Shown in pieces: positions 1-64,000 of a stretch of DNA of 64,000 nt. Every line of letters begins with the position of its first letter. Position 1 is the first letter of the stretch. Source of the stretch: an uncultured Candidatus Saccharibacteria bacterium (GTDB taxonomy: Bacteria > Patescibacteriota > CAZHWT01); contig CAZQWH010000002.1 of the NCBI GenBank assembly GCA_964597145.1, positions 49,232 to 113,231 on the forward strand, given 5' to 3'. The notes under the pieces were generated by a model. That model ran no database searches. It saw only the letters and a program-made list of their open reading frames with translations, and was not told the origin of the DNA. The position numbers and the translations under genes were made by a program.

Positions 1-16
1 CATACTATAATCAGTT

Positions 17-868
17 ATGGGTATTTTGATTGATTTACTACTATTGGGCTTTATAGGAATCGTAATTCCTACTGTAATTAGATTCGCCATCCTTAGAAAG
101 CCGATTGATGGATGGCCAAACTATCTTGTAGTGGCAATAAACGCCGTAATACTCTTTTTTACTCCAGTAATCGTATTTAGCGTATTCATTGCTCCCCTAG
201 AAATAGCCCCTTATAGTGAATACACCTTTGTAAAATTAAATTCATCTACAATTGTCCCAGTTTCAATTCTTGCTTACTTCATACTAAGGCGCCAGACTAA
301 ACAAAAGACCGTAAAGCCGGAAGAGCCTGTCAAAATCCCGTTTGAACAACACATTAAGAATGAAGTCGGAGTAGAAGAAGAGACCGCTAAGCCTATCAGT
401 AAAACCAATAAACATCGCAACGAATTAAAACCTAGTTTAAAGTTGGTCACAGTAATTGCGATAGTCGCGGTTGTCGGGGGGTTATCCTATTGGTTTATTC
501 AAAGGCCTCAAATTGTACGCTCTGCGTGTTATCAAGAATTCAGCCAAGACACCGAATCCCTTGAAGCAGCCATCGAGTATGATAAGTGTCTACGTTCAAA
601 GGGTCTACCAGGGGACAGTACTGCGATAAACGCACATCTCATTAAGCAAGTTGAAGGGCTTCAAGAGGAAATTAATAACTATTCTTGGAAGGTAGACTTC
701 TTGCTTGATGCCCAACGAGAAACTCTTATGCAGCAAAGCGATTATCAGTCAAGACTAGATGAGGTACAAAATAGCTTAAACTACATCGAGCGCGAAAACA
801 GACTAGAGCAGTCTATCAATTGCGGAGAGGGTAGATATGTAGGCGGGGGAATGTGTGTCTATTATTAA
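17..868 (+). CDS. Membrane protein with N-terminal TM helices and C-terminal coiled-coil; hypothetical
   Basis: 283-aa ORF; 3-4 hydrophobic helices at the N-terminus, a mid-protein TM segment, charged/heptad-rich C-terminus; no recognised catalytic motif. Confidence 0.4.
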   Translation: MGILIDLLLLGFIGIVIPTVIRFAILRKPIDGWPNYLVVAINAVILFFTPVIVFSVFIAPLEIAPYSEYTFVKLNSSTIVPVSILAYFILRRQTKQKTVKPEEPVKIPFEQHIKNEVGVEEETAKPISKTNKHRNELKPSLKLVTVIAIVAVVGGLSYWFIQRPQIVRSACYQEFSQDTESLEAAIEYDKCLRSKGLPGDSTAINAHLIKQVEGLQEEINNYSWKVDFLLDAQRETLMQQSDYQSRLDEVQNSLNYIERENRLEQSINCGEGRYVGGGMCVYY

Positions 869-869
869 G

Positions 870-1253
870 TCAGCTGGCAGCAATTCGTTGCTTTTTAATT
901 ATTTCAGCCTTCGCAATTTCTGCGTCTAATTCTACATCACTCAAATCGTCCAACGGGTCGTGCAGAGGAGTGGATTTGTGCATCCTATACATGCCTCTTA
1001 GCCTAAATGCCATATCCAAACCTTTTGCCCTAATGCTCATATTGTCTGAATCAACTAAGCCTCTTACTGATTTAATCAGTTCCTCCATTGGTAAAATCTC
1101 GGCACTCAATTCCTGCCACGCCTTACTTTGCAGTAGCTTTTGTGGATTGTGTGACATAGCATCAGAATACCCAGCTTCACGCATTGCAGCGCTCACATTT
1201 CCACCATTTTCAACCATTTTATTAAAAGCTAATAATTGTCGCTTGGTTGCCAT
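870..1253 (-). CDS. Phage terminase small subunit-like protein (Terminase_2/P27-type HTH)
   Basis: N-terminus 'MATKRQLLAFNKMVENGGNVSAAMREAGYSDAMSHNPQKLLQSKAW' fits the recalled TerS consensus (LTxKQxxF...N.T.A...AGYS...A...LL); no large terminase adjacent. Confidence 0.5.
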   Translation of the reverse strand: MATKRQLLAFNKMVENGGNVSAAMREAGYSDAMSHNPQKLLQSKAWQELSAEILPMEELIKSVRGLVDSDNMSIRAKGLDMAFRLRGMYRMHKSTPLHDPLDDLSDVELDAEIAKAEIIKKQRIAAS

Positions 1254-2425
1254 ATACTAATTATGCCATGAATTCCACTACCCCCTCTACATCAAAACAA
1301 TCAGTCGATAGTAGATATTCATTTAAGCTCGACAATCATGGTCGTTATTTTCTTGATGAGTACCCAACAGTGTTTATTGGTGGATTCACTGGAACAGGTA
1401 AATCAGTATTGCTGCGTTACATATACCACCAGCTTAGACTGCATTCTGTTGTGCAATTCGTCCATATCGATTTAAAGCAGGTAGAGAGGATAGATATCCC
1501 CAGCGATCGACAGTTTGCCACATCAACCTCCAACCTATTTGAGGCAGATAAGGTTATTGATGACTTACTCGACCTACCGACTAATCATAAGCCTGTTGTG
1601 CTTTTATGGGATGTATTTGAGGACTACTATTTCAGCCATGATAAAGCAGGCGATAAATTTAGACGCTTAATTGAGGCGGCAAATCATAAGCCAAACCTGT
1701 TTGTTATTGCAGCCACTTCTTCTTATAGAGGCAAGACAGTGGAGCCGTATAAGCTTCGATTATTAAGTTCGTGGGCACTTGAGAGTTATAGGCAGCTTAC
1801 AAGCAATCAAATGGGTGTTGAAAGGCTACAGCATCTTATATCACGAACTATTGAGACAAATAACAATCATCTATATTTACCATCAGCAGGTACTTTTATC
1901 GCATTTAATGCTGATGGAAACTTTATCGGCTTCCATAAAGTTCCAGAGTCTATTAGCGACCTAGCTACAGGTAACAAGTTTCTGAATGATAGCCAGTGGA
2001 ATGAGCTGGTTGATTCAAACACTGGCTCGGTAGGGGATAGGGTCAATGCTTGGCAATTCGCCTGGCCGTTAAAAGGGCTCTATACTGAGCTTTATTATGA
2101 TTTTGATATACCACTTCGAGATAAGCTGAAGTCTAGAGCGATTAAGGGTTCGGCAGATTGGATTGCAGTGCAAATTAATGACTTAAACAAGCTTAGAGGG
2201 AAGATGGATTCTATGAAGAGCAGGATGGATGAACAGTCGCATAAATTTATTTCCAAATTCTACAACCAATTAATTAGTTACAGCGATGAGATATTAAAAG
2301 CTTATGAGAAAGCGAGCACCCTCAGGAATGGTGCTGACACAATGGTGGATTTAGACACACTTAGCCATATGAATCATCTGGCGCTTGGGTATATTGGACA
2401 ACTTGAGGCAATGAGCGGGGAATAA
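1247..2425 (+). CDS. P-loop NTPase (Walker A/B), hypothetical
   Basis: Walker A 'GGFTGTGKS', Walker B-like 'VVLLWDVFED'. Real start probably the ATG at 1265, since the 1247 start overlaps the divergent TerS-like start. Confidence 0.5.
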   Translation: MPYTNYAMNSTTPSTSKQSVDSRYSFKLDNHGRYFLDEYPTVFIGGFTGTGKSVLLRYIYHQLRLHSVVQFVHIDLKQVERIDIPSDRQFATSTSNLFEADKVIDDLLDLPTNHKPVVLLWDVFEDYYFSHDKAGDKFRRLIEAANHKPNLFVIAATSSYRGKTVEPYKLRLLSSWALESYRQLTSNQMGVERLQHLISRTIETNNNHLYLPSAGTFIAFNADGNFIGFHKVPESISDLATGNKFLNDSQWNELVDSNTGSVGDRVNAWQFAWPLKGLYTELYYDFDIPLRDKLKSRAIKGSADWIAVQINDLNKLRGKMDSMKSRMDEQSHKFISKFYNQLISYSDEILKAYEKASTLRNGADTMVDLDTLSHMNHLALGYIGQLEAMSGE

Positions 2426-2427
2426 AA

Positions 2428-2826
2428 TTATAAAATACTAATCGTCTCAATCAAGCTCTGAGGACGAGATGTTAAATCTGTTTTAATCCATCTACCATAT
2501 GCGCTATTCTCCCTCAGTACTTTTTGTTCAGATTCCAGCGTGTAATCATCAAACCAAACAAAGGAAGTCTCGAAGTCGATCGCATCAGTCTTTAACACAT
2601 CCCAATTAGTCGGGTTAATGCGCTTAGTTAATTTAAGTACATCCTTATCTTTTATATACCTACCTAAGTACAATTCTAAATACTCTAGATTACCTCTACA
2701 ATGAGATGTAAGCCAGAAAACCTTATGATTGGCTAATATGTGTTCTAAAAATAACTTGAGGCCAGCTGCAGGCGCTCCTGTCTTTTTATCCAAAATGGTG
2801 CCGTCGATATCTATGTAAATATTCAT
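2428..2826 (-). CDS. HAD-superfamily phosphatase-like small protein
   Basis: N-terminal 'IYIDIDGTILD' (DxDGT motif I); 132 aa. Confidence 0.5.
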   Translation of the reverse strand: MNIYIDIDGTILDKKTGAPAAGLKLFLEHILANHKVFWLTSHCRGNLEYLELYLGRYIKDKDVLKLTKRINPTNWDVLKTDAIDFETSFVWFDDYTLESEQKVLRENSAYGRWIKTDLTSRPQSLIETISIL

Positions 2827-2849
2827 ATCTTGGTGCAGACTTATATATA

Positions 2850-3221
2850 CTAACAGCCACGCGTACTCCTTCTGCTGTGATTGTCAGGACTACACCGCCA
2901 CTCCTGTTTTTGTATCTCAAGCTGCTCTTCCTGGATTTCTAATTCTTTTTGTCGATCAGCTTGTGCAGCCGCTTCTTGCTGGGGTAATTGATATCCAAAG
3001 TAATAGCCAGCTACTCCAATAAAGCATAGTAGAATTAGGGCGAGTAAAACTTTAACATCCTTCGATTTGCCTTTACCTGATTTCTTATCACCCGGTCTTA
3101 TGTGTGGACCTTCTAAAAGCGCTTTTTTGTGTTCAGCTAGCTCTTCATCACTTAGTACACCTTTTTCTTTTAGCTTCGCAAGTCTTTCTAATTCGTTCAA
3201 TGTTCGTTCATTCATAAGCAC
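2850..3221 (-). CDS. SHOCT-domain membrane protein
   Basis: 'LERLAKLKEKGVLSDEELAEHKKALL' matches the recalled SHOCT consensus; single TM helix 'VLLALILLCFIGVAGYYF' follows. Confidence 0.55.
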   Translation of the reverse strand: MLMNERTLNELERLAKLKEKGVLSDEELAEHKKALLEGPHIRPGDKKSGKGKSKDVKVLLALILLCFIGVAGYYFGYQLPQQEAAAQADRQKELEIQEEQLEIQKQEWRCSPDNHSRRSTRGC

Positions 3222-3258
3222 ATATTAGTTAACACTTACCTTTATAGTCAATCAACTA

Positions 3259-4119
3259 TTAACCATGCTCCTCATGGTATTTGACCAGCTCTAAATTGAT
3301 TGAATGACTGTCATGTAAAGTTAATCGGCCTACTTTTTTGCCTTCTATCCGATTTTGAACATTAAAATTTTGGTCGATATAAATTGCGCCAGTATCAAAA
3401 AGCACGTGGTGGTTAGGGCATAGGCACAGTAGATTTGATTCAATATCAGGGCCGTTGTGTGGAGCGCCTAACGGCTTTATATGGGCAGCTTCTGCGTACG
3501 GACCTGCGCTAGTTAATAGCCTTGTATCGCATACCTGACAAGTGTAATCGTACAATTCTTTTATTCTAGATGCAGTATTCGTATTTCGAACAATACGCTG
3601 AATAGTTGCCGACTTACGCTCTGTTGCATAATTTGCGCCCTCATCCTCAACTTCTCTCACTAATACAGGCTCTTCGCGGAGTAATCGGAATCTCCAGATA
3701 TTAAAACCGTCACGCCCCTTTTCATGCCAATACGACTCAACTCTATATAAGCCGTCATAACGATAGCCTGTGGTGGGGCTATGGGGAGATTTATGCTCCG
3801 AACCTCTAATCACTCGAACAGGCAGGCCATTTATGCAATTGAGTGCAAGCGCTTTGTTTTGATTAGTTAATTCTTGGTCTGCAATTTGAACGCCTGTATT
3901 TATGTCTCTACCCCCATGACCTGTATAAATCACTTCATCAAAATAATCTTCGTCATCTACATACCCACCTGATATCACCAATGAATCAGCACCCTCAGTA
4001 CTCGAACCGGAAATACCCGCCTGCAAAGGTCGATGGATGCCAGCATCATGCAGTTCACGCCTATTTGCAAACACATCACCAGATTTAATATTTTCAATTT
4101 CACCAAAATGTCTTGCCAT
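3259..4119 (-). CDS. SRA(YDG)-HNH type IV modification-dependent restriction endonuclease
   Basis: SRA blocks align with the UHRF1 SRA domain: 'GIHRPLQAGISG', 'SLVISGGYVDDEDYFDEVIYTGHGGRD', 'QELTNQNKALALNC', 'YRYDGLYRVESYWHEKGRDGFNIWRFRLLRE'. C-terminal HNH: 'CQVCD...HIKP...NLLCLCPNHH'. Confidence 0.85.
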   Translation of the reverse strand: MARHFGEIENIKSGDVFANRRELHDAGIHRPLQAGISGSSTEGADSLVISGGYVDDEDYFDEVIYTGHGGRDINTGVQIADQELTNQNKALALNCINGLPVRVIRGSEHKSPHSPTTGYRYDGLYRVESYWHEKGRDGFNIWRFRLLREEPVLVREVEDEGANYATERKSATIQRIVRNTNTASRIKELYDYTCQVCDTRLLTSAGPYAEAAHIKPLGAPHNGPDIESNLLCLCPNHHVLFDTGAIYIDQNFNVQNRIEGKKVGRLTLHDSHSINLELVKYHEEHG

Positions 4120-4198
4120 GCAGAGTAATTTCTCCTTATTAGATGTAGAAAAATTTCTACCTGCTAATCATTATTTACAATATTAAGCTCCCAAATGA

Positions 4199-6574
4199 TT
4201 AATGCTCAAAATCAATTTTGCGCAATCGAAGCTCCTCTTCAACTCGCTGTCGCTCTGCGATTATAGCTTTATCTAGACTATCAAGTTCTAATCGTGCAAA
4301 CTCTCGTATGTTTTTGTTTTTACTATTACTAAAGTTGGCTTTAATATGGTCATACTTTGCCTGATGTGCATCAGCTACACCATACTCGCCTGAAACTACC
4401 CCTGTTGTAAATATTGATGCGCTAACTTTAGACCAAATCTTTTTATTTTTGGTACGAGCAATAATTGCAAATGCTGTTTCTAAATCTATTGATTCAAACG
4501 AGCTAGAGTAGAAGTTAGCAACTTTTAGAAGCCCGTCCTGATCGGCCTTTTTGACGAAGGAATTTAAATACTGTCTATGCACAGTCAATTGCTTAAGTAA
4601 TTGCGACATTTCAGAATTATACATTGTCCACTGAGTAGAAAATGATTTAATAACGTCAATAAAAACTTCACCAAATTCAGGGTCATTTTCACATATCTCG
4701 CGAGGCCCATCACCAATATGATATGGAACAGGGTCGTAATCTTCATTTTTGAGCCTAGTGGAATCTCTGAGCTTGATGCGCCTGGAGAAGAACTCTATTA
4801 ACCACCTACTCTTACCACTAGCAAGCTTTGTAATAATCCGCTCATGTTCATGTGAAAGGCGAGGAGTATTGATAAGCTTCTCTTCAAGAGTTTGTCTAAT
4901 TTCTTTACTCAATTTTTCTACATGTATTTCGTCTCGATGCTCAGCTATATCAATGGCATGGAAATATAAAGATGAGTGACTTTCATACATGTTAAGAAGG
5001 TCAATAAATAACTTGATTGCTTCATTATCATTGGGGTCTACGGTCAACCTTTTTCCCAGCACCTCTACCAACCCACTGATGTACGATGGCCAGGCCTCTT
5101 TGTCGATAAACTCAAAACGGCCAGACTTGTGTATCATCTCACTAACAACCAGCATTTCATCCTTTTCTACACTACCAAGTGATATTGCTTGAGGGATAGA
5201 AATAAGAGCTTCGCCAACCTTATGTTTAACTATAATTTCGAGAACGCCATTATATTCTTTTATTGCATCCGCTTTTTTAAACCCTATTAAAAATTTTCCT
5301 GCCATTTTTAAAAGCTCGGAACCATCCTGTGCTGCCTCAATAATTAGCTCCATGGCCAATCCAGGCTTTGCTTCCGCAAGCTCGATAAGTAGGGAATAAT
5401 ATGAGCTCAGCTTCCAACTCTCAATCTCTGTAGAGTGGCTAGCTATTTGCTTAATAATCTGCGCTCCATTATCTGACGTGTCTTGAATTTCCTCAATCAG
5501 ACTCGCACGTTCTAAACTCGATTCCTTCTGAATTTGCTCGTAGGGCTTCTTTGAAATATGACGCAACTTATCGCCTAATAACATTGAGTAAATCTGATAA
5601 TTTCTATCGCTACTTAAGCCCTTAGATATGCTATCCATCTTAAGCAAAATGTCTTCATCTTCGTGGTCTTTACCCATAAAATAAAGCTGCTCTTCAATCT
5701 CCAGTCCAAGTACTGGGTCACAAACAAAATCACCTTCACCCAATAAAGAGTCGCTATATATATCGAGAACTTTTTTAGTATTATTCTGGATTAACCCTAT
5801 TAATTCAGGAGATGCCTCGCCGCGACTAGGTATATGAGTTAATGTCTTCATTAAATCTATAATCCTGTTTTTTGTACTAAGGCTGGCATTATTAGATTTA
5901 AGTAACAAACCTAGCTTAGTTAATATCCACTCGCGAATCTCAACTAGCTCATCGTTAACAGGAAGTGGCGCAAATCCCCACACAAATGTATTCTCATCTT
6001 TCATCGAATGAGATTCACCCTCACTAGAAACGAGGTGACTTGTTAACTTTATAAAAAAATCTAAGTTACCATTATGGCTTAAGTCAAGCGTATCTAGATA
6101 TTTAATAATATCTAGTTGGGTTCTATATCCAATATGTGATAACGCCTCCAAATTATATTCGGCAGTTTCCCTAATTTTGTCCTCTAATTGCCTGCTTAGC
6201 GAATCGTCTTTCCTTTGAAAGAGTTTGTGGTAGATTGCAACTACTTTGGTGGTTTCATAATAGCGAATTTGATTAAGTAGCTGAATAGTTTTACTGTTTA
6301 AATCGCTATTACTTTTGCCGACAATTTTCCCAAACTTAGTGTTGCGAACAACAGGCGGCATAGGCTCGTTGTCCAGAAGCTCTCTTAGTAGCTCAACAGC
6401 TTCTCCAGGAACTTGAAGAACAAACTGTGACAATAAATTCAATTGCTCGAAAATTGTATCGTTGTTAGATGCTTCTTTAATAGTCTCTGCAATGGAATTA
6501 AATTTATCACCTAGCAAATTATTCGCTGAAGGCGATTGTAGGCTCATTAGTTTTCTATAAACGTCTCGCTTCAT
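4199..6574 (-). CDS. Large (791 aa) uncharacterised protein, predicted mostly alpha-helical; downstream partner of the Mrr-like nuclease gene
   Basis: Long uninterrupted ORF. Its start lies 3 nt after the stop of the upstream gene (translational coupling). No Walker or other catalytic motif recognised. Confidence 0.6.
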   Translation of the reverse strand: MKRDVYRKLMSLQSPSANNLLGDKFNSIAETIKEASNNDTIFEQLNLLSQFVLQVPGEAVELLRELLDNEPMPPVVRNTKFGKIVGKSNSDLNSKTIQLLNQIRYYETTKVVAIYHKLFQRKDDSLSRQLEDKIRETAEYNLEALSHIGYRTQLDIIKYLDTLDLSHNGNLDFFIKLTSHLVSSEGESHSMKDENTFVWGFAPLPVNDELVEIREWILTKLGLLLKSNNASLSTKNRIIDLMKTLTHIPSRGEASPELIGLIQNNTKKVLDIYSDSLLGEGDFVCDPVLGLEIEEQLYFMGKDHEDEDILLKMDSISKGLSSDRNYQIYSMLLGDKLRHISKKPYEQIQKESSLERASLIEEIQDTSDNGAQIIKQIASHSTEIESWKLSSYYSLLIELAEAKPGLAMELIIEAAQDGSELLKMAGKFLIGFKKADAIKEYNGVLEIIVKHKVGEALISIPQAISLGSVEKDEMLVVSEMIHKSGRFEFIDKEAWPSYISGLVEVLGKRLTVDPNDNEAIKLFIDLLNMYESHSSLYFHAIDIAEHRDEIHVEKLSKEIRQTLEEKLINTPRLSHEHERIITKLASGKSRWLIEFFSRRIKLRDSTRLKNEDYDPVPYHIGDGPREICENDPEFGEVFIDVIKSFSTQWTMYNSEMSQLLKQLTVHRQYLNSFVKKADQDGLLKVANFYSSSFESIDLETAFAIIARTKNKKIWSKVSASIFTTGVVSGEYGVADAHQAKYDHIKANFSNSKNKNIREFARLELDSLDKAIIAERQRVEEELRLRKIDFEH

Positions 6575-6577
6575 AAA

Positions 6578-7465
6578 CTAGCCTCCTTGAATTTGGCTAA
6601 TGACTTCTTCTAAATCTCGACCCATCGTCTCGATCATGTCAGTCGCTACTTCTTGAGCAATTTTAGGATTATTTGCAGTGATAATGTTGCCAGTAATATC
6701 TATACTGGCATTTGTCATCAACATACCATGAACCTTCAATTCGGCGTCCTCATCAATTTGGAATAAATCTCGAAGAACAGCTCTTACTTTATCGTGGTCA
6801 TCTAAATATAAGGGTTCAAATAAGTATACAAATGCATGATACCTACTTGCCAACTTGGGCCAGTCAATATATTGGGTCTTAAACTTCCGACTAATTCTTT
6901 GGAACTCGGGGGCCTGCCGAAATAATTCCCTCTCCTTGGCAGCTTGAGCAGCTTTTTGTTTTTCGAGTTGCACTCGCAGCTTGTCAATTTCTCGGGCATC
7001 GTAAACTTTCAGCAGCGGCTTAGAGATTTCAGGGTATGCGTCCACTAGGTGGGCTAGCTTTTCGAAATCCCAGTATTCAATTCTAGCCTTAGGATAATTG
7101 GCAATAATAGCGTTAACAGCCTCATGGTCCTTTTTAGTCCTACGCACGTTGGTTATATAAACGTATGAGCCTACGCCGTCTTTACCACACTTGGATTCAA
7201 GCCAGTCTTCAAACTCTTTGATAACCTCTCGTCGTTGTCTTGCCCCATCCCCTCCAGCTATCTCCCTGAATTTAAGCTGGTGATATTGAACACCAGCTTG
7301 AGAGCCTGGATAGCTAGAGTCAATACCCCCATCCTTTCCTTTTCTTGGTCCAGGAGTATACCCATCTCCGCCAAACTCTTTTCGTAAGAATTGGTGGCAC
7401 ATCCGGTCAAAATTATCTTGACCGAGCGAGTCGAACATGTAGTTATGGGGCGTAAATTCAAGCAT
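6578..7465 (-). CDS. Restriction-endonuclease-fold protein (Mrr_cat-like PD-(D/E)xK N-terminal domain) with a C-terminal domain of unknown function
   Basis: 'FDRMCHQFLRKEFGGDGYTPGPRKGKDGGIDSSYPGSQAGVQYHQLKF' resembles the Mrr catalytic core (FE..V..LL...G...DGGIDG...VQCK). Confidence 0.45.
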   Translation of the reverse strand: MLEFTPHNYMFDSLGQDNFDRMCHQFLRKEFGGDGYTPGPRKGKDGGIDSSYPGSQAGVQYHQLKFREIAGGDGARQRREVIKEFEDWLESKCGKDGVGSYVYITNVRRTKKDHEAVNAIIANYPKARIEYWDFEKLAHLVDAYPEISKPLLKVYDAREIDKLRVQLEKQKAAQAAKERELFRQAPEFQRISRKFKTQYIDWPKLASRYHAFVYLFEPLYLDDHDKVRAVLRDLFQIDEDAELKVHGMLMTNASIDITGNIITANNPKIAQEVATDMIETMGRDLEEVISQIQGG

Positions 7466-7564
7466 AGATGCAAATTATAGGTATAATTATATACTTACAC
7501 AGTGATACAGTTAAGGAGTATAGCATGCGGATAGCAATTTAATTTAAAATTATAAGTCTTTGTC

Positions 7565-8755
7565 TTGACTTCCGACACTATACTAGTTGTTATGAATTCT
7601 TTTGTGATATTGCCTTACGTGCTTGTAGCTGGACCATTCACCTTTAACGGCTGCACCTTCTTGCCTTTCGATAAGTTAAAAGAGGAGGTTGCCGACCAGG
7701 AAATTCGAAATTTGGCTGAGCAATTACGTAAAACTTATATTAAGTTCGATAATCGTACAGATGAGAATCTAACTTTTATTTACCCAGCTGAATCACACTT
7801 GGGCGATGAAATCGAATCAGAAAGGCTATCTCAGGTCATACAGACCATACAAGTGGCATTTCTGGGGTATTTCATTAACAATCACCAATGGCACTGGATT
7901 ACATCAGATAATTTTGAGCCAATCATGGTGAGATATGACGGTGAGCACATCTCCCTGCAAGGCGGCTCAATTCACCAAGTCTTATCAGGAGGGCATACAC
8001 TTGAAGGCGCTAAAACAATTCGGCCCAACTGGATTAATAATGTAGGCAAACTAGGACCAATTGGAATGAAAAAATATGCGGGTCCACTATTAGAGGCGGC
8101 GCTTCAGAATAATACCAGCAACGCAATCACCTCAATGCTGTTCTTTTTCGAAGCTTATAAAAACAATGACTCAATCCCTTTGGTAAATCGTCTTACAAAC
8201 CTCTACTTGGCATTTAACACACTTTTTAAAGTTCCAACTGGTAGTGGAAGCGAGCGAAAGGTTATCAAAGAACAACTCGTAAAGCACTCCGAACCAAGTT
8301 TGCCAACTTACAGTTATCCCATCATCAATACCAATAATGGCAGAGAAATAGCACGGGAAGAATTAACGGTTGTTCAAATCTGGTGGGAAGAATTCTATAA
8401 GCTTCGATGCCGCATTTTTCACGGTGACGCATTGCAGGAGGGTGACTTTTTATTTACTGATATTTCCGGCCAAAATATTTTCCCACGCCCGACTCTACAC
8501 TTACATTTTGCGAGCAATATTTATGCTGGTGTGCTATTTAATGTCCTTCGTAATTCAGCCGGTAATGCGGATTGTCCTTTACGGTACGAGCTTGGCCCTA
8601 CAACAGGCAGAGGAGATACCTTGAATCCGTCTGGACTAGGATTTGCTGACCGAAATTACATGCCACCATTTAAAGTCTTTGACCGCACTTTTGAAGAGGA
8701 ATTACGGATAACAATGGAGAAGCATGCCGTAAACAATGCTGATTCAGATAGCTAA
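7565..8755 (+). CDS. Hypothetical 396-aa protein with a HEPN-like Rx4H motif (possible Abi-type RNase)
   Basis: 'LRCRIFHGD' gives R-x4-H; no other recognisable domain; sits in the defence island. Confidence 0.3.
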   Translation: MTSDTILVVMNSFVILPYVLVAGPFTFNGCTFLPFDKLKEEVADQEIRNLAEQLRKTYIKFDNRTDENLTFIYPAESHLGDEIESERLSQVIQTIQVAFLGYFINNHQWHWITSDNFEPIMVRYDGEHISLQGGSIHQVLSGGHTLEGAKTIRPNWINNVGKLGPIGMKKYAGPLLEAALQNNTSNAITSMLFFFEAYKNNDSIPLVNRLTNLYLAFNTLFKVPTGSGSERKVIKEQLVKHSEPSLPTYSYPIINTNNGREIAREELTVVQIWWEEFYKLRCRIFHGDALQEGDFLFTDISGQNIFPRPTLHLHFASNIYAGVLFNVLRNSAGNADCPLRYELGPTTGRGDTLNPSGLGFADRNYMPPFKVFDRTFEEELRITMEKHAVNNADSDS

Positions 8756-9306
8756 TAACAACGCCAAAGCGAATGCTAGAACCAACGCTTAGTTCCTATA
8801 AGTAGTGGTAGTTAGTTTACTGAAGCCACGATACGCTTTGAATTCATATCTTTTATTAGTTTATCCCAAGTAGTTAATACCTGAAGCAATTCGTTCCACT
8901 CTAATTTTATCCGGCTCACCAAAAATCCCTCATGACCGAAAGGTTGTGGGGGATTTTTGTTGGGCTGTGTTGAGCCAACCCGCGCAATTCGCTGGGTTCG
9001 ATATCGAGGAGAGCAACTATCGCTGCCGCCAGGCATGCTATAGTTGAGAACTCTATATATTGCCATACTCCCTCCCGGCTCACCAAAAGGGACATTACGA
9101 AGGTAATGTCTTTTTTGTTTTTTGTAATAACTAAAATTTTAGGAGTTGTGTTCGATATTTTGGGACCCGGATGCACAAATCGAACACTTTGACATCATGT
9201 CTGTAGATAGCATAGTAGAGTGATCTTGATGCATAGTTTCTATGCAAGTGGTTGAATGAATTGTTAACTGAGACTGTTTTGTTAGTAGCTGAGTTATAAT
9301 TACCGC

Positions 9307-10158
9307 ATGTATGAAAATTTTGATTGGCAGTTTTTATTACCCTATACCAAAGAGGCGACTCCTGAAAGCTTAAATCCTGTAACGGTTATACATGAGTTAG
9401 ATCAATTACCTAAAAGTATAGTTGAGGCTACAGGGAAAATACATAGCTCAACACCACTCTCTCAAGCCTTATGCAATTATGTGCTATTGCTTAATGCCGA
9501 AAAGGGTGATTTTATCCTAAAAATAGCTAGAGGAGCATATAGAGGCGCGCAGTTGCAGCATGAGTACGCTATAGGCAAATACTTGATTCATAATTCCCAA
9601 TTTCGCTTGCTTTCAAATCCCATAAATTTTTCTAAGGAGGGCGACTTTTATTATTTCCTACAGACTCGAATAAGCGGTAGTGTACTTAGTCCAAGTATTG
9701 ACCAAAATATATGCATTCAGCTGGCTAAGTCATTAAAGGAAATTCACTCATCGAGTTTAATTTATGAGAATTATGATGTAGTTCTCGAATATAATCTCGC
9801 TTTAGCTGAAGCAAATTTTCATAGCAAGCTTATCGATCTAGAGGAATTTATTGGCATAGGTGATCCTTCGACTGTGTTGTCATGGCTTCAGAGTCATCGG
9901 CCTTCTCATCACCCCTTAACTCTCATTCATGGCGATTTTCGACCGAAAAATACACTTTGGCAAGATTCTAAAATAGTCGGCATCATTGATTGGGCTTTTT
10001 CTTCCATAGGCGATCCCTACTACGATATAGCAATAATTCAGTTTTACCTCAAAACACAGCAGCTAAAGGATACCTTTTATATTGAATACGGTATCACTGA
10101 TTTAGATTGGGGAAGGCTTGACTACTATGACAAGTTGAGCAAATTCCTAAATGTTTAA
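9307..10158 (+). CDS. Aminoglycoside/choline-kinase-type phosphotransferase (APH fold)
   Basis: Brenner motif 'HGDFRPKN' and 'IIDWAFSSIGDPYYDIA' (DFG-like), nucleotide-binding-lobe features; flanked by identical 22-nt direct repeats. Confidence 0.7.
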   Translation: MYENFDWQFLLPYTKEATPESLNPVTVIHELDQLPKSIVEATGKIHSSTPLSQALCNYVLLLNAEKGDFILKIARGAYRGAQLQHEYAIGKYLIHNSQFRLLSNPINFSKEGDFYYFLQTRISGSVLSPSIDQNICIQLAKSLKEIHSSSLIYENYDVVLEYNLALAEANFHSKLIDLEEFIGIGDPSTVLSWLQSHRPSHHPLTLIHGDFRPKNTLWQDSKIVGIIDWAFSSIGDPYYDIAIIQFYLKTQQLKDTFYIEYGITDLDWGRLDYYDKLSKFLNV

Positions 10159-10637
10159 TGGCACAATTCTAGCCTTATATCATCCAACCACTCCAGCAGG
10201 TGTTCGAACCAAATGGCATCCGGCTCACCATAAATGGCTCAGATCATTTGATCTAGGCTATTTTTGTTGCGTCGCTAGCGAATCTCCCAGTTCATAGTAC
10301 TGTTCGCTTGGCAGGAGAGTACTATTTGCACAACGATACTAATTGTATGAATTACCAACTTGGCGGAGCCAACTCCCTCCCGGCTCACCAAAACATCTAA
10401 ACAGTGCGCCTCGGATCCATCCATCTATCTGAGGTAAAAAAGCTTTGTTACGTAACATGTTACGCAATAATAGGGTCTGGTGATATCTGTGAGGGGAGCA
10501 GGTGTCATATTTAACTCAACGTACATCCATAGGATCATGTAAATTAATTTTATTTGATATATAGCCTATAATATTATATAATCGTCACTATACATAACCG
10601 AGGTTCGCAAGCAAGTATCTACAAAGGAGACTGCAGA

Positions 10638-10976
10638 GTGGAAGCAATTCTCATAGTCCTTTGTGCATTGGTGGCTGTTATAGTTGCAGGGATAATCATC
10701 CTCAACCCGTTTGCTGCAATGCGCTTTCGGCAACGGTTTGTATATGTGGGCCCTGCCAAACCGCTTTCATATAGAACTGGTATGCAGGATAAGCAGCGAT
10801 GCTTCTGCACAGCACGTGGCACCACTCTGATTCTGTTCAAACCACTGATCGGCAGTAGTGTTATCGCCAACTATCAATCAACCGGCGACACTAACTGTCA
10901 GTCATGCACTGAGCATGAGGCGCTCCTCATCAAGAAGAGCGATCTCGCAAGTTGGCTGCACGCGAACGCCAGATAA
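10638..10976 (+). CDS. Small membrane-anchored hypothetical protein
   Basis: GTG start after RBS 'AAAGGAG'; N-terminal TM helix; strong terminator immediately downstream. An alternative minus-strand ORF overlaps it. Confidence 0.35.
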   Translation: MEAILIVLCALVAVIVAGIIILNPFAAMRFRQRFVYVGPAKPLSYRTGMQDKQRCFCTARGTTLILFKPLIGSSVIANYQSTGDTNCQSCTEHEALLIKKSDLASWLHANAR

Positions 10977-11036: not shown

Positions 11037-11178
11037 TCTCGACTTTTATCCCTAGTGTAAATAGGGGATAAACACCTGACAGGTGGAAAGATGTACATTA
11101 CGTCATTCGGATGGCACAATCGAACACTTTGCATTATTCATTATTAAATAGAGACAAAAATTACCGTTTCAAGCAGAA

Positions 11179-12291
11179 CTAATTATAGAACGACCAATTT
11201 TGCGTATTGATGACTGTCTTTCCAAGATACTTATTTAGTATATTCGCCAATTTCTCATAAAAATCATCGTCAAGATTTCCACTCAAAATTCGCTCTTTTA
11301 TGTGCTCCGGCACCGAAGCCATAAATCTTCCTAGTAACGCCTCTCTATATTTAGACGCTGAATATTTTTCACCATTCCGATCCTTAATGCTTTTTTCTGC
11401 AGCCACACCCATTCCTGGGGCTAGTTCGGTGGTAACAAAAGGCACCTTACTGTTAACAAAATCATCAGCATGTGCTTGGTATATTCGTTGAATCACCGAT
11501 AATGCTTTATCTGCCTGCTCGTCATCGGAGTACAATACAATTCGATCATCTCTATGTTTCGTGGCAAAATCGCCGGCTACCATCGAGGCCTCAGATACTT
11601 TAATTTGGACCGATAGGTCCTCCTCTACAATCGCCTCCATCACTTCTTCAAAAACCTGCTTAGCTGCAGCAGGGTGTGGATTAAGATAAATTCTTTTAGA
11701 CGGGTAATTGAACGTGCCATTTTCAATATTTTGCATGGCTTTTGGTGAAGTATACTCCGCAAAAACAAGTGAATTATCCGAACACGAGAATCCTGCTTGC
11801 TTATATTTGCTACGCAAGGATTTCAGATCTTGGTAATAGGCTTCGCGCAACTTCTCGCTATTTGAGTAAGGCTGCTCGTATTCATTGTCCAGATAAAAAT
11901 CGTAACTTAGGTTTATCTGGCCTCCATTTTTGCGATACGAATCCAGGAGTAGCTTTGTTTTTTCGGCGTCGAAATGGTTGGGTATTTGCATTGCCTGTTC
12001 AAAGGTGGTTGCCTTGAAAGTCTCAGCCTCTCTTTGTATTCGAACTTCCTTACTCCTTAGGGCATCCATATAAGCTGCGTGGTCGGGATATTTTTTAAGA
12101 ATAGCAGTATACGCTTGGAGCTCAGGATGACTTAGATCCTCCCACCCCGAACGATACATTTCTTGAATAACCTGGGCTTCGGGATCATCTTGCGTTGCAA
12201 AGCGATCAATAATTTCTTGCGGAGTTTCTGGATTAAATCCTGGCACTTCACTCATAAAAAGTATTGTACAGAAAAAACTTTCGCGATCCAA
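11179..12291 (-). CDS. Hypothetical protein (370 aa)
   Basis: Long ORF, acidic/helical; start ambiguous (TTG at 12291 with 'GGAAG' upstream, or ATG at 12255); no motif recognised. Confidence 0.45.
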   Translation of the reverse strand: MDRESFFCTILFMSEVPGFNPETPQEIIDRFATQDDPEAQVIQEMYRSGWEDLSHPELQAYTAILKKYPDHAAYMDALRSKEVRIQREAETFKATTFEQAMQIPNHFDAEKTKLLLDSYRKNGGQINLSYDFYLDNEYEQPYSNSEKLREAYYQDLKSLRSKYKQAGFSCSDNSLVFAEYTSPKAMQNIENGTFNYPSKRIYLNPHPAAAKQVFEEVMEAIVEEDLSVQIKVSEASMVAGDFATKHRDDRIVLYSDDEQADKALSVIQRIYQAHADDFVNSKVPFVTTELAPGMGVAAEKSIKDRNGEKYSASKYREALLGRFMASVPEHIKERILSGNLDDDFYEKLANILNKYLGKTVINTQNWSFYN

Positions 12292-12623
12292 CTATTACCC
12301 AGCTTCCATACTTTCATTAAAGTAAGGAATTTGGTTGTACAGAGGGGATACCCACTCCCGATATGGTAAAGTTCTAGTCATAACGCTAGTAGTTTTATCT
12401 GAGTTAAAATGACTTTGTTACGTAACACGTTACGTAACAATAGGCATAGTGGTATCTACAAGAGGGCACCTGTTAAGAGGTAAACGCCTGACAGGTGGCA
12501 GAGCTGATTACTCCATAGCCAACCACTCACCCTCAAAGTTGTTGTCGCACTACTTGCGCATAATATTTCAACTCCTCTGTATCATCTGATATAATTCCGC
12601 CACGTATCAAAGGAGTAGACAGT

Positions 12624-13022
12624 ATGCCAAAGACATTCGTCACCTGCGCCATTATTATTGACGACCAAGACCGCTATCTACTAATTAAACGTGCCCGAGA
12701 TCCCTATGCAGGATATTGGGCATGCATTAGTGGTATAGGCGCCTCAAGGAAAGGATTTCCGCCCGAGCAAGCAGTTATCAACGAAGTCAAACACGACATT
12801 AGAGCGGAGTTCCAGGGACATCTAGCCTTCAGCTACCCTTTACCAGAATCTAGGTTAGCCAGCACTGCCTATGTCTTTATTGGCCAAGTCAATCAAAGCC
12901 AGATCGCTCTTAATCCAAGAGCTGCTACAGACTATAGATGGTTCAGCCACCACGAATTAGAGCAAGAAGCATCATTGGCTTTCGAGGATAAGTGGATCCT
13001 TGAGCAAATCACCACAAGCTAG
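12624..13022 (+). CDS. NUDIX-like hydrolase (degenerate Nudix box)
   Basis: 'GYWACISGIGASRKGFPPEQAVINEVKHDIRAEF' is a degraded GX5EX7REUXEEXGU box; RBS 'AAAGGAG'. Confidence 0.45.
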   Translation: MPKTFVTCAIIIDDQDRYLLIKRARDPYAGYWACISGIGASRKGFPPEQAVINEVKHDIRAEFQGHLAFSYPLPESRLASTAYVFIGQVNQSQIALNPRAATDYRWFSHHELEQEASLAFEDKWILEQITTS

Positions 13023-13253
13023 CTCAACCACACCTCCTAGCAACCAAGACCAAAACCTACCTTTGGTCTTGGTTAATCCATGCCTCTTTTATGTCTGTAA
13101 ATTAATGGATTAGGTTATTATTCAATCACTCCAATAGGCATCCGATACTTTAGAGTCTAAATACATTAATCGAGCATTGCAATCATTGACTCGAGATGGC
13201 TCATCTCTTAAACAGTTATAATAGCCTATATTACACAGCCGAATGTATTATGT

Positions 13254-14198
13254 ATGAGAATAAAGATTAGACAAGAAGTATACGATGATTACTGGCGGTT
13301 TGCTGCCGAACGCCAGGAAATATTTTTTCGGCGTTTAGAGGGAGAACTGCCACCATATACATCTGATCCAATTTTGTCTCACTATAAATTTTGTAATACC
13401 TACCGGGCTAGCGACCGAGTGTCTCAGTTTTTAATTAAAGAAGTCATTTATAGCCAACAGCGCTCAGATGCCGACACGCTCTTTCGTATTTTTCTGTTTC
13501 GCCTGCTCAATAAAAACACAACCTGGATGGAACTAGAGAAGCGAATAGAGGAGATATCGCTGACAAAATTTAATACCGATCATTATGCATCAGCACTGGA
13601 GAATATAAGAAAAACACAACCCATTTACGGCAATGCGTTTATACTCTGCGCCAATAAGGCGTTTGGTTTTGACCAGAAGCATCGGAATCACTTAGCATTA
13701 CTTGAGCAAGTTTTTGTGAAAACCAATATTTCTAATGATTTATTGGGAGCCAAAAGTTTAAAGGATTTATTTAAAACCCTTCGATCACTACCATTAATTG
13801 GGGATTTTATGGCATACCAGATTGCCATTGATATGAACTATTCTGAGGTATTTAACTTCAACGAAAACGACTTTACAATTGCGGGCCCAGGAGCAATTCG
13901 TGGCATTAAAAAGTGTATCGAAGATCCCAACGGAACCACTACGGAAGAAATCATTAGCTATATGGTGGAACATCAAGATGAAGAATTTGCGCGCTTAGGG
14001 CTAACATTTAAAAATTTAGGCGGGAGAAAATTACACGCCATTGATTGCCAAGGCCTCTTTTGTGAAACGGACAAGTATTCGCGGGTAAAACACCCCGAGC
14101 TGAAAAGCAGCCGGTCTAAAATAAAATCGACCTTTAAGCCCCTGGCAAAGCCAATCGACTATATGTACCCGCCAAAGTGGAACATTAGACTTGGCTAA
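13254..14198 (+). CDS. Hypothetical protein (314 aa), function unknown
   Basis: Clean ORF; conserved-looking 'YKFCNTYRASDRVSQFL'; no family recognised. Confidence 0.45.
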   Translation: MRIKIRQEVYDDYWRFAAERQEIFFRRLEGELPPYTSDPILSHYKFCNTYRASDRVSQFLIKEVIYSQQRSDADTLFRIFLFRLLNKNTTWMELEKRIEEISLTKFNTDHYASALENIRKTQPIYGNAFILCANKAFGFDQKHRNHLALLEQVFVKTNISNDLLGAKSLKDLFKTLRSLPLIGDFMAYQIAIDMNYSEVFNFNENDFTIAGPGAIRGIKKCIEDPNGTTTEEIISYMVEHQDEEFARLGLTFKNLGGRKLHAIDCQGLFCETDKYSRVKHPELKSSRSKIKSTFKPLAKPIDYMYPPKWNIRLG

Positions 14199-44580: not shown

Positions 44581-46215
44581 TCAGGTCGGGAATGACAGGG
44601 GAGCGGTGTTTGTTAATTGAGGCGAATATGGTTTGATATTGGATCGATTGCTAGGACTACTTATATATCGTTTTAAGATTTTATATTGATCCAGATCGAA
44701 CTGAGGGATTATCGATTGGTGCTCAATTAACTGGTCATGTTGGATAATATGGCCAACCAAACACCAGTTATCAATAATATACCCATCACTTTGGCCTTGA
44801 TGGTCGCTTTCGGTAATAATAATCGGTGTCGCATATGGCCATTGTTTAATTCTGGTTGTGGCAAAAGCTTGGTTGAATCGCATTAAATACTCCAAGCTGG
44901 ATTCTTTTCCCACACACGCTCCATAGCAAACTTTGAGTTGATGAGGGAAACAGGCGCCAGAGGTTTTTTGGAGCCCTAATAATTTGTGACAAAGGTGATG
45001 CTCTTTGGCTAGAGCAACTAATGATTCTTTAGCCTGTCGCTCGGAGCGATAGACGGCCATAACTGCGTCCAGAGGGACGCAGGAGGTCGATGGTGGGAGG
45101 TTGGAAGGCGACTTGGATTTTAATTTGTCGTCATCCCGGAAGAAGTCTTGCGACTGATAGGATCTAGATTCTATCGCCTTTGGCTCTCTTCGATCCTGAG
45201 CCTCAGAGCCGAAGGCCAGAATGACATTTTCTATATTTATTTTTTCTGATTTCTGATTTGTTTCGATTTTAGGATTTAGAATTTCTGATTTGCGCTGCAA
45301 GGAGATTGTTGGATAGCCAGCCTCATCTTTGCCTTTAATCGCCACCATCATCTCGGTTTGGCATCGCAGCAGCCGGTTATGGATCGGCATTAGCTCCTTA
45401 ATTAAGCGTGATTCAGTAAGCAAGGCACCTAGTTCGCCGGTAGTAGATATGGTTTCAATATCCGTAATTTCCCGGGCAATCCGTTGCTCTTTGGGGGAGC
45501 GGTGGTCATCGCTAAAGTGAGATAAAACTCGATCACGGATACTCACACTTTTGCCGACATACAAGGGTGCATTAGTGGCAGAGCGAAAAATATAAACCCC
45601 CGGCGACTCAGGTAAGTCATTCACAATTCTCTGGGGCAGGTGAACCGGCAAAGATGGCTGACGTAGCTGTAATCGAACCTGCTGGTTAATAATTGCTTCG
45701 TCATGTTGTTCAACCATGCATTGCAAGGCTTTCCAAGTCGCTTCAGCATCAGCAAAAGCCCGGTGGCGTTCGAGTATAGGGATAGCAAAGCGTTCAATGA
45801 GGGCGTCTAGTTTATGGCTGCGATAGTGCGGGTAAAGTGCTCGGGACAACTTGACCGTGCAGAGCAGGCGAGGTTTAAACTGGTACCCAGCTCGCCCTAA
45901 TTCCTCTTTGATAAAGGCATAATCAAACCGGGCGTTGTGCGCCACAAAAATACAGCCTTCAAGTAAGTCGTACACATCCTGAGCCACCTCAGTAAAAGTA
46001 GGTGCGCCCGTTATATCATCATTAGAAATCCCAGTTAATTGGGTAATAAAGGCTGGGAGTGAGGTACCAGGATTAATTAATTGGCGCATAGTTTGCACCA
46101 CCTGCCCCTGCTCAATCCGTAAAATACCCACATCAATCACGCCGCCGTTTTTATACGACATCCCAGTAGTTTCGACATCAACAATAGCCAGCGGAGAATG
46201 GAACAGATTGGGCAT
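44581..46215 (-). CDS. DnaQ-like 3'-5' exonuclease (DEDDh) fused to GIY-YIG nuclease domain (Cho/UvrC-homologue-like)
   Basis: Exo motifs 'VDVETTG', 'HNARFD', 'HRAFADA'; GIY-YIG 'GVYIFRS...LYVGKSVSIRDRVLSHF'. A ~75-aa low-complexity insert is encoded by repeat DNA at ~45060..45300. Confidence 0.85.
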   Translation of the reverse strand: MPNLFHSPLAIVDVETTGMSYKNGGVIDVGILRIEQGQVVQTMRQLINPGTSLPAFITQLTGISNDDITGAPTFTEVAQDVYDLLEGCIFVAHNARFDYAFIKEELGRAGYQFKPRLLCTVKLSRALYPHYRSHKLDALIERFAIPILERHRAFADAEATWKALQCMVEQHDEAIINQQVRLQLRQPSLPVHLPQRIVNDLPESPGVYIFRSATNAPLYVGKSVSIRDRVLSHFSDDHRSPKEQRIAREITDIETISTTGELGALLTESRLIKELMPIHNRLLRCQTEMMVAIKGKDEAGYPTISLQRKSEILNPKIETNQKSEKINIENVILAFGSEAQDRREPKAIESRSYQSQDFFRDDDKLKSKSPSNLPPSTSCVPLDAVMAVYRSERQAKESLVALAKEHHLCHKLLGLQKTSGACFPHQLKVCYGACVGKESSLEYLMRFNQAFATTRIKQWPYATPIIITESDHQGQSDGYIIDNWCLVGHIIQHDQLIEHQSIIPQFDLDQYKILKRYISSPSNRSNIKPYSPQLTNTAPLSFPT

Positions 46216-63372: not shown

Positions 63373-64000
63373 ATGAAAGATATCAGTAATGCCTGGAATT
63401 TAGCCTTGCAAACTATTAACCAAACACTTGGCATCCCAGCCAATGCATCCCCCCCAATAATAGAATACCATTCCGCTTTACACGCGGTTGGCTATAAAAA
63501 CCCAGCCAGACTGATTGTCCTAAATGGGCCAGCAGGCGCGGGCAAGAGTACAATTGGCAAGCTGCTTGGCCAGCTCAATTACCACCGCATTCCGCGTCTC
63601 ACCACCCGACCCATGCGTTATGGTGAGCAGGATGGGGTAGACTACTACTTTGTTTCTCAGCCCTATTTTAATAATGAGTTACGAGCAGGTAACGTTTTAG
63701 CCGCAAAAACAACCTACGGTCATCACCGTGGATTTTTAGCGAACGACCTAGAGCACGCGATGTTAGGTGACAAGTTTTATATGGAAGGGGATAGCTCGCT
63801 GCAAGCCATTTGGGAATTTAAAGATTCCCAGCAATTCAATTTAATGGACGTACTAAATATTTTCATCCTCCCACCAGATCCCAAAAGCTGGGTGGGTAGA
63901 GTAGAATCCCAGATGAAGGCCGGGCATTTTTCTACAACTGAACGCAATCTACGCGTGCAAGAAGGGATACAGTATATACAAACCAGTGCCAAGCGCTATC
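63373..64000 (+). CDS. Guanylate-kinase-family protein, 3'-partial (runs off the window)
   Basis: 'VLNGPAGAGKSTIGKLL' P-loop then 'RLTTRPMRYGEQDGVDYYFVS' GMP-binding region typical of Gmk; not in the ORF track because it is open-ended. Confidence 0.65.
   Translation, partial: MKDISNAWNLALQTINQTLGIPANASPPIIEYHSALHAVGYKNPARLIVLNGPAGAGKSTIGKLLGQLNYHRIPRLTTRPMRYGEQDGVDYYFVSQPYFNNELRAGNVLAAKTTYGHHRGFLANDLEHAMLGDKFYMEGDSSLQAIWEFKDSQQFNLMDVLNIFILPPDPKSWVGRVESQMKAGHFSTTERNLRVQEGIQYIQTSAKRY

Follow-up and report, generated by a model that had tools for sequence, protein, structure and literature searches.

The four short repeats that surround a gene for an APH-fold kinase in DNA of an uncultured Candidatus Saccharibacteria bacterium (contig CAZQWH010000002.1) are very probably leftover 3' ends of a tRNA-Lys gene, lying at the far end of a tandem array of elements at that gene. 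The whole stretch analysed, referred to here as the window, is 64,000 nt long, and positions to its left carry negative numbers. The repeats, named copies A to D, are all on the plus strand, span less than 1.5 kb, and share the motif CCGGCTCACCA(A/T)AA. An earlier note on this DNA, made from its sequence, took them for footprints of site-specific integration, and this proposal is borne out: the repeat has the sequence of a tRNA-Lys end, the tRNA lies to the left, two serine recombinase genes abut repeat copies, and the motif is confined to the locus.

Repeats with the sequence of the tRNA-Lys 3' end

The four copies are as follows:
8911-8924, plus strand: copy A, short type, with a tRNA-derived part limited to the final 11 nt of tRNA-Lys and AAA
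9067-9088 (motif 9075-9088), plus strand: copy B, long type, with the 3'-terminal 19 nt of tRNA-Lys (T-loop to CCA) followed by AAA
10220-10233, plus strand: copy C, short type with one mismatch, the attR-like right end of the kinase-carrying element
10372-10393 (motif 10380-10393), plus strand: copy D, long type, with 22 nt identical to copy B

The two long copies consist of an identical 22-mer, ACTCCCTCCCGGCTCACCAAAA, at 9067-9088 and 10372-10393. The earlier note had recognized this identity, but placed the pair at 9065..9086 and 10383..10404, off by 2 and 11 nt; its positions for the short copies were within 1 to 2 nt of those given here. When the whole window was scanned on both strands with CCGGCTCACCAAAA, allowing up to two mismatches, a fifth match was retrieved at 63618 on the minus strand, with two mismatches, which is probably due to chance. 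Shuffled windows contained a mean of 0.51 matches, and none of 100 shuffles reached five. The motif was otherwise not found in the remaining ~54 kb of the window, and over 13 kb leftward of the window it is confined to tRNA-Lys and the junction between two elements, E1 and E2, described in the next section.

Copies A to D are tRNA fragments and not tRNA genes, in agreement with the earlier note, which had called none of them a complete tRNA. ARAGORN retrieved no tRNA gene at these sites and Rfam no match at the gathering threshold or at E <= 10; the only complete tRNAs in the window, by ARAGORN and Rfam (RF00005), are tRNA-Leu (54146) and tRNA-Val (57911). That the repeat is a tRNA 3' end had also been correctly seen, but its supposed likeness to the tRNA-Leu of the window is superficial, the sequence being that of a tRNA-Lys end. 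Elsewhere, tRNA-Lys genes end in exactly the 19-nt core ACTCCCTCCCGGCTCACCA. A scan with the 18-mer CTCCCTCCCGGCTCACCA over one genome per species returned 45 loci. In at least 10 genomes the matching locus is a tRNA-Lys (CTT or TTT) called by ARAGORN that terminates precisely with the 18-mer; they comprise Hyphomicrobium, a Rhizobiaceae bacterium, Vicinamibacterales, and a Candidatus Saccharibacteria metagenome-assembled genome (MAG). Judged by shared mobile sequences and similar G+C content, the present strain is possibly Saccharibacteria-like.

A search for an intact tRNA that matches the repeat, as the earlier note had suggested, led to a tRNA-Lys(CTT) further left, in the same orientation. 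Same-strain contigs found by exact-protein look-up (including L006 and L068) extend the sequence to 13.2 kb left of the window. Three independent same-strain assemblies (L067, L068, and L069) all begin within ...TTGGGGGTTCGACTCCCTCCCGGCTCACCAAAAGG, ~13.2 kb left of the window, which is the T-arm plus acceptor end of tRNA-Lys on the plus strand. The full protein of rec1, the recombinase gene adjoining this tRNA, is encoded on a 243-kb NCBI contig (P0024) and has the C terminus LVSREGVEPPTNALRGHCSTIELPA / ...LLVSREGVEPPTNALRGHCSTIELPA..., a tail that matches, at 25 of 25 positions, what the reverse strand of the complete tRNA-Lys(CTT) would encode in L034, a contig of a Candidatus Saccharibacteria MAG. 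Because the rec1 tail equals the reverse-translated complete tRNA, the tRNA-Lys(CTT) of this strain is almost certainly whole, and it would lie ~22 kb left of copy A on the same strand.

Serine recombinases and their predicted attachment sites

The elements, recombinase genes, and attachment (att) half-sites between the tRNA and copy C are as follows:
left of E2, starting at tRNA-Lys: element E1, ~10.4 kb, carrying rec1
about -2761 to 8910: element E2, ~11.7 kb, with its right-hand ~8.9 kb inside the window (1..8910)
L068 1-1485: rec1, adjoining tRNA-Lys on the strand opposite to it, with a reading frame that enters the tRNA
-2862..-1297, outside the window (L068 10327-11892): rec2, encoding Resolvase, Recombinase, and Zn_ribbon_recom domains
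8812..8925, minus strand: putative element-side (P-type) arm of the E2 att site, encoding the recombinase C-terminal tail LVSR-IKLEWNELLQVLTTWDKLIKDMNSKRIVASVN-stop
10202..10223, plus strand: putative P-type half-site GTTCGA-N12-CC|GG, directly left of copy C, with 14-nt spacing

The limits of E2 are a short copy at -2761 and copy A. The products of rec1 and rec2 are large serine recombinases (LSRs) that are 56% identical, and each gene abuts one repeat copy: rec2 overlaps the short copy at -2761, and rec1 sits at the tRNA. An integrase further left, for which the earlier note had proposed a search, is thus present twice, each time adjoining a repeat copy. Both genes have the placement characteristic of LSR elements, with the LSR gene at the element end and next to the att junction. 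In both, the last codons, LLVSR, are the reverse complement of CCGGCTCACCAA, and therefore the attachment site lies within the 3' end of the recombinase gene.

The same arrangement is recognizable at the short copies. On the minus strand, the left flank of copy A reads LVSR-IKLEWNELLQVLTTWDKLIKDMN... and is 52% identical to the rec2 tail over 27 amino acids (tblastn, 8922-8842, E 4e-5); because it encodes a rec2-like tail, this flank is taken as the element-side arm of an att site located in a recombinase 3' end. Copies A and C have in common the left flank GTTC(C/G)A-N12-CC (the hexamer being abbreviated GTTCSA), unlike the flank of copies B and D. The GTTCCA of copy A, at 8893-8898, is 14 nt from the CC|GG center, and this distance recurs in five P-type half-sites, namely those at -2761, copy A, copy C, the first site of L016 (a second contig of the MAG that contains L034), and the attP of contig L077. 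In the tRNA half-sites that were measured (L034 and L078), GTTC(C/G)A is the T-loop and lies 9 nt from the center, and the tRNA fragment of the present strain has the same sequence as these half-sites with 9-nt spacing. For large serine integrases, the distal motif is 5 bp nearer the center in attB than in attP (PMC11722253), and a shift of exactly this size is present here in the left half-sites, the only ones for which it can be assessed. From these sequence features, copies A and C are best described as predicted attR junctions, in each of which an element-side half-site is joined at CC|GG to a tRNA end.

The recombinase tails extend this picture to a family. At E <= 0.001, rec2 has 809 homologues, and tail patterns were scored on the best 120 (P0023-P0142). 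Among these 120, the C terminus of 94 follows the pattern [LMIV][VA]xx-x-G[IVFLM]E[PS], the reverse-translated T-arm at a fixed offset. In 8 others the tail is "native", and four codons past the core it has WN, encoded by TGGAAC (GTTCCA in reverse complement); the latter class was chosen by a pattern that contains WN, so that its uniformity is partly built in. Annotated tails such as ...GIEPVTS and ...GVEPPT would thus come from reading across an integration junction into the tRNA gene, and the true stop codon of the free element is in the other att arm. The 12.2-kb contig L077 (1-12166) encodes a recombinase that is 49% identical, has an intact attP at the recombinase 3' end, and carries a 29-bp terminal overlap, consistent with a circular form. 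In L078, an attL/attR pair with a 14-nt repeat 5.4 kb apart occurs at a tRNA-Lys(TTT), together with an LSR that is 48% identical. Searches of viral contigs gave no match for the motif or the recombinase protein, phage records gave no blastn match, and a motif scan of metagenomes gave one match, in GC-rich coding DNA, that was judged to be due to chance. Read from sequence, the family appears large and its att sites legible; it is not established as undescribed.

The cargo of E2 consists of an SRA-HNH nuclease and several large proteins without a family match. In the parts at 3259-7465 and 17-2425 of the window, this cargo resembles a defense island. The SRA plus HNH nuclease has weak similarity to a phosphorothioate-DNA-dependent restriction enzyme, and the proteins of 791, 295, 392, and 283 amino acids beside it have no family match or only weak PADLOC matches. 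In L077, the cargo comprises the recombinase, an SRAP peptidase, a Y-family polymerase (IMS), and a protein with a reverse transcriptase domain; the SRAP and IMS pair is common to L077, the E1 cargo, and L016.

The kinase-carrying segment, the small units, and their origin

Between copy A and copy D, and shortly beyond, the following features were identified:
8914..8965, plus strand: terminator-like hairpin with T-run after copy A, an inverted repeat with a minimum free energy (MFE) of -38.5 kcal/mol and z -7.3
8925..9066, plus strand: body of unit 1, 142 nt, between copies A and B
9084..9117, plus strand: intrinsic-terminator-like hairpin after copy B, z -4.6
9067..9285, minus strand: degraded 3' fragment of an LSR3-type recombinase gene, with a stop codon and gaps
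9148..9187: 40-bp palindrome GTGTTCGA...CCGG...TCGAACAC, ~60 nt past the tRNA end, with an equivalent in a recombinase coding region of L034 (7209-7156, minus strand)
9307..10158, plus strand: APH-fold kinase of 283 amino acids (Pfam APH, PF01636), with the catalytic motif HGDFRPKN intact
10223..10272, plus strand: hairpin with T-run after copy C, MFE -17.4 kcal/mol, z -3.45
10234..10371, plus strand: body of unit 2, 138 nt, between copies C and D
9168-9191 and 11108-11131, plus strand: 24-nt repeat CGGATG(G)CACAA(A)TCGAACACTTTG, 83% identical without gaps, or 22 of 24 positions with one indel each (by eye)

The open reading frame (ORF) of the kinase is the one given in the earlier note, and the ORF list and Pfam agree on it. 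Against the NCBIfam model for APH(3') (NF033068) the kinase scores 91.6 bits, below the equivalog cutoff of 205; it is predicted to be a distant member of the APH fold and mobile-element cargo, and annotation should not present it as a confirmed resistance gene. The kinase gene does lie between repeats, as had been noted, but the identical pair B and D does not form its bracket; the working bracket is copy B, which is attL-like, and copy C, which is attR-like. The hairpin after copy B resembles the hairpin 3' of tRNA-Lys in L034, with 96.6% identity over 29 nt (blastn, L034 7257-7285 versus window 9095-9067). In L034, this hairpin and the 40-bp palindrome ~60 nt further on are both within the 3' end of a third recombinase gene, named LSR3, whose product is 32% identical to those of rec1 and rec2. 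Residues 426-510 of LSR3 match 9285-9067 on the minus strand with 29% identity over 85 amino acids (tblastn, E 0.009), which is moderate evidence for a gene remnant. Because of the L034-like hairpin, the weak LSR3 stub to the right of copy B, and the proper half-site at copy C, we infer that the segment from B to C is a decayed, recombinase-less element of ~1.15 kb that has retained its ends, a recombinase stub, and the APH-fold kinase.

The second direct repeat reported in the earlier note exists, but it is probably not an att core. Its copy at 11108-11131 corresponds to the palindrome's right half, repeated at a distance of 1.9 kb and sharply delimited, and the 24-nt repeat is probably a duplicated fragment of a recombinase gene 3' end. 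The palindrome itself was considered as an att site and rejected, with spacings of 13 and 11 nt (by hand count) in place of 14 or 9, and with a position inside recombinase coding sequence in L034. In the 3' end of rec1 (L068 25-95, window about -13165..-13095), a 12-bp inverted repeat, CCGCAGAAGTTGG ... CCAATTTCTGCGG, follows just past the att core, a position that parallels the palindrome of LSR3-type genes; it might serve as a terminator for the restored tRNA.

The bodies of units 1 and 2 give copy-to-copy spacings of 164 nt (A to B) and 160 nt (C to D). With its flanking copies included, unit 1 aligns over ~200 nt with a unit in L016 at 72% identity (blastn, L016 15-209 versus 8903-9088), where more units follow, and the hairpin after copy A has a near-identical counterpart there (36-70). 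Units 1 and 2 have a common layout and a few common blocks (ATTTTTGTTG; GTTCG-N6-AGGAGAG) and share little other sequence. Each opens with a replacement tRNA end and a terminator, and copy D has no terminator-like hairpin downstream (z -1.3). In copies B and D and in the long copy of L016, identity with the tRNA begins at one position of the T-loop, ACTCCCTC, and we infer that two older insertions, of units whose bodies measure ~140 nt, cut the tRNA at the T-loop and left B and D as its displaced 3' halves. The MAG that contains L034 and L016 has, at L034 7267-7341, an intact tRNA-Lys with an adjoining recombinase, and L016 1-480 starts at a repeat, with an element-side half-site followed by at least two units with tRNA 3' halves; the two contigs may belong to a single element and hold its opposite ends, with an assembly break between them. 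The possibility that L034 represents an empty site followed by a HopA1-like gene was rejected, as the gene adjoining the tRNA is the third recombinase.

The proposed array would read, from left to right, tRNA-Lys, E1, E2, copy A, unit 1, copy B, the kinase-carrying element E5 (~1.15 kb), copy C, unit 2, and copy D, over ~23.6 kb. Each incoming element would supply a replacement for the last ~11 nt of the tRNA together with a new terminator hairpin, and each newer insertion at the tRNA would shift the previous junction rightward; each unit with a ~140-nt body would likewise have brought a replacement 3' end and a terminator. In the simplest history, the tRNA was initially joined to D, and unit 2 entered at the T-loop, followed by the kinase element, unit 1, E2, and finally E1, so that copy D would be the oldest displaced tRNA 3' half. 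The successive insertions proposed in the earlier note are retained in this scheme, but its "small cassettes" are recast as a decayed kinase element and two units with tRNA 3' halves, at the end of a larger array. The expected circle junctions would be ...GTTCCACTCTAATTTTATCC|GGCTCACCAAAAGTTCTTTTTTGG for E2, ...GTTCCAATGCGCCGAAAGTC|GGCTCACCAAAAGGTCTTTTGG for E1, and ...AAATGGCATCC|GGCTCACCAAAAGGGACATT for the kinase element.

Several observations weigh against this account of the locus. Neither an empty-site allele, as the earlier note had recommended looking for in related genomes, nor an excised allele was found among the same-strain contigs, all of which share one arrangement. The intact tRNA is deduced from 30 nt of DNA and a protein tail, with no direct read. 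Evidence for a recombinase stub in the kinase element is weak, the alignment having an E value of 0.009 and being interrupted by a stop codon and gaps. The attR of L078 has no GTTCSA at 14 nt, so that the motif rule is not universal in the family, and by eye the mirrored motif is absent from right-hand half-sites. Other difficulties concern the long copies: a crossover at CC|GG cannot make B and D, whose left flanks are without the GTTCSA motif; Pfam annotations reveal no second type of integrase between -13.2 and +14.4 kb; and the copy pairs are spaced alike (164 and 160 nt in the window, with one homologous unit in L016), which random decay of large elements would not be expected to produce.

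An explanation directed at these long copies is that B, D, and the units go back to a second class of elements with crossover in the T-loop, either as scars or as miniature non-autonomous derivatives; this would complement the array at tRNA-Lys rather than replace it. We place its probability somewhat below an even chance. The block of identity runs from the T-loop to the tRNA 3' end and has one start position in B, D, and the long copy of L016, and the sequences right of A and C form terminator hairpins, which a replacement 3' end should bring. Crossover in the T-loop is a classic sublocation for some tyrosine integrases, which are known to prefer particular sublocations within tRNA genes. 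However, by Pfam no gene between -13.2 and +14.4 kb has a tyrosine integrase domain, decay products would not be expected to be so small and so alike in size, and no full-length relative was found in the viral, metagenome, or phage searches.

Alternatively, the ~160-nt periods (A to B, C to D, and in L016) could be tandem tRNA-like noncoding RNA genes located 3' of tRNA-Lys, among which the elements would merely have landed; each gene would have a terminator of its own and would have the acceptor 3' strand and CCA in common with the tRNA. Conservation of the A-to-B unit in another genome (L016, 72%) favors this, as do the hairpin at equal position and of the same shape but different sequence in the window and L016, a GGGCTG(G) block, complementary to CCGGCTC, that comes after the upstream terminator in three units, and the terminator-like hairpins after A, B, and C. 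Against it, RNAalifold on four units, a very small sample, gave a consensus of 4 bp of pairing at -1.56 kcal/mol, Rfam and ARAGORN were empty even at permissive thresholds, no promoter-like site was seen in or just before the units, each of which begins right after a terminator, and unit 2 is without the 5' acceptor-like block and the second hairpin. RNA genes are the weakest of the origins considered for the small units, and we regard them as improbable. A permuted or two-piece transfer-messenger RNA, or a permuted tRNA (CCGGCTC-ACCA, hairpin, GGGCTG), was also tried and rejected: the G.U pair is at 2:71 and not 3:70, ARAGORN is empty, and the junctions explain the layout.

It is much less probable again that the tRNA-like ends have a function linked to the kinase, such as that of RNA decoys or antitoxins directed at an enzyme acting on tRNA CCA ends. 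Two copies do precede the kinase gene and two follow it, but recombinase junctions already explain the copies, and the motif is absent near the kinase homologues examined elsewhere (44% and 33% identical), in 5 kb of flanking sequence on each side or, where contigs are shorter, up to their ends. The least credible explanation, generic dispersed repeats (repetitive extragenic palindromic- or miniature inverted-repeat transposable element-like) or chance with no tie to integration, has nothing but the repetition itself to recommend it, given that shuffles predict 0.5 matches versus four clustered copies, that the copies coincide with recombinase gene ends and tRNA sequence, and that the 77 kb hold no others save at the tRNA and the E1/E2 junction; the genome-wide dispersal that the earlier note had named as fatal to its proposal was not seen, the motif being confined to the locus in ~77 kb.

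Two more speculative proposals can be made, which we consider unlikely, although far from the least credible possibility above. In the first, the near-universal tRNA T-loop (GTTCGA) may be the recognition motif of the second DNA-binding domain of this recombinase family; attP would carry its own copy of the motif, GTTCCA, 5 bp further out, where it encodes the conserved Trp-Asn of the recombinase C terminus. In the second, the units would be miniature T-loop-inserting elements, mobilized in trans, each of which may deliver a spare tRNA 3' end and a terminator.

Relation to known systems and implications

Tandem accretion at one site, including recombinase-less remnants, is known from the ICESt and cis-mobilizable elements (CIMEs) of Streptococcus. 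The actinomycete elements Fean5518 and Fean5534 lie in tandem at a tRNA-Lys (PMC3218068). As in such accretions, a row of elements occurs here at one tRNA 3' end, with direct repeats between them and the intact tRNA at one end, and the B-to-C unit resembles CIMEs in keeping ends and cargo without a working recombinase. The differences are in the enzymes, which are large serine recombinases here and tyrosine integrases there, and in the presence here of two units with ~140-nt bodies.

The SCC and pseudo-SCC islands of staphylococci and enterococci are inserted at the 3' end of rlmH (orfX) by the serine recombinases CcrAB. Oriented insertion by serine recombinases at the 3' end of a conserved gene, tandem composites with short direct repeats, and recombinase-less accessory cassettes are common to both systems. 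In the present elements, however, the target is a tRNA, the att site is in the 3' coding end of the recombinase, and the recombinases are single genes and not a ccrA/ccrB pair. With the integrases of LI/A118, Bxb1, phiC31, and SPbeta, the recombinases share the Resolvase, Recombinase, and zinc-ribbon domains, short sites, and the 5-bp motif shift. Those integrases have mostly protein-coding targets, whereas here the distal motif is the tRNA T-loop, as read from the sequence of the left half-sites.

An attP inside the integrase gene, with a C terminus that is altered by integration, is found in Mx8 (intP/intX) and SSV1, both of which have tyrosine integrases. The crossover in the 3' coding end of the recombinase is the same here, as is the contrast between a tRNA-encoded tail in the integrated copy and the WN tail in the circle, but the enzymes are serine recombinases. 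The closest precedents for this combination of enzyme and target include phiRSM1, a filamentous phage with a small serine recombinase. Serine recombinases at tRNA genes, represented by phage phiRSM1 (tRNA-Ser) and by actinomycete integrative and conjugative elements (AICEs) of Mycobacterium (tRNA-Leu), were called rare in 2011 (PMC3218068). The main text of the Durrant 2022 recombinase survey does not mention tRNA. Integration by a serine recombinase at a tRNA 3' end is thus shared with phiRSM1 and the Mycobacterium AICEs, and the differences are the small recombinase of phiRSM1 and the large size of the family described here (809 homologues, with 94 of the best 120 reading into a tRNA).

Beyond the array, a 112-amino-acid ORF with an N-terminal hydrophobic segment (10638..10976, plus strand) is preceded by a near-consensus promoter-like site at 10554-10582. 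Further right (11179-14198) are genes for a HopA1-domain protein, a NUDIX hydrolase, and a protein with the helical domain (HMUDK_hel) found in 5-hydroxymethyl-dU DNA kinases; this combination is unusual and may have to do with modified DNA bases. At 44581-46215, the window encodes a 544-amino-acid protein in which an RNase_T-type exonuclease domain is fused to a GIY-YIG nuclease domain.

Tandem arrays at tRNA genes with recombinase-less remnants are already well known, but the enzyme class found here has been reported only rarely at tRNA genes. What appeared as an odd cluster of tRNA-like repeats becomes a readable history of insertions at one tRNA gene, and it points to a large, mostly metagenomic family of serine recombinases aimed at tRNA 3' ends, a combination still described as "rare" in 2011 (PMC3218068). 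With the core, the 5-bp-shifted motif, and an attP inside the recombinase gene, candidate attP/attB pairs are easily defined as possible integration tools. If the T-loop is indeed the recognition motif, this could explain how relatives are retargeted among different tRNAs, and integration would swap the tail of the enzyme, possibly as a built-in switch of directionality or expression.

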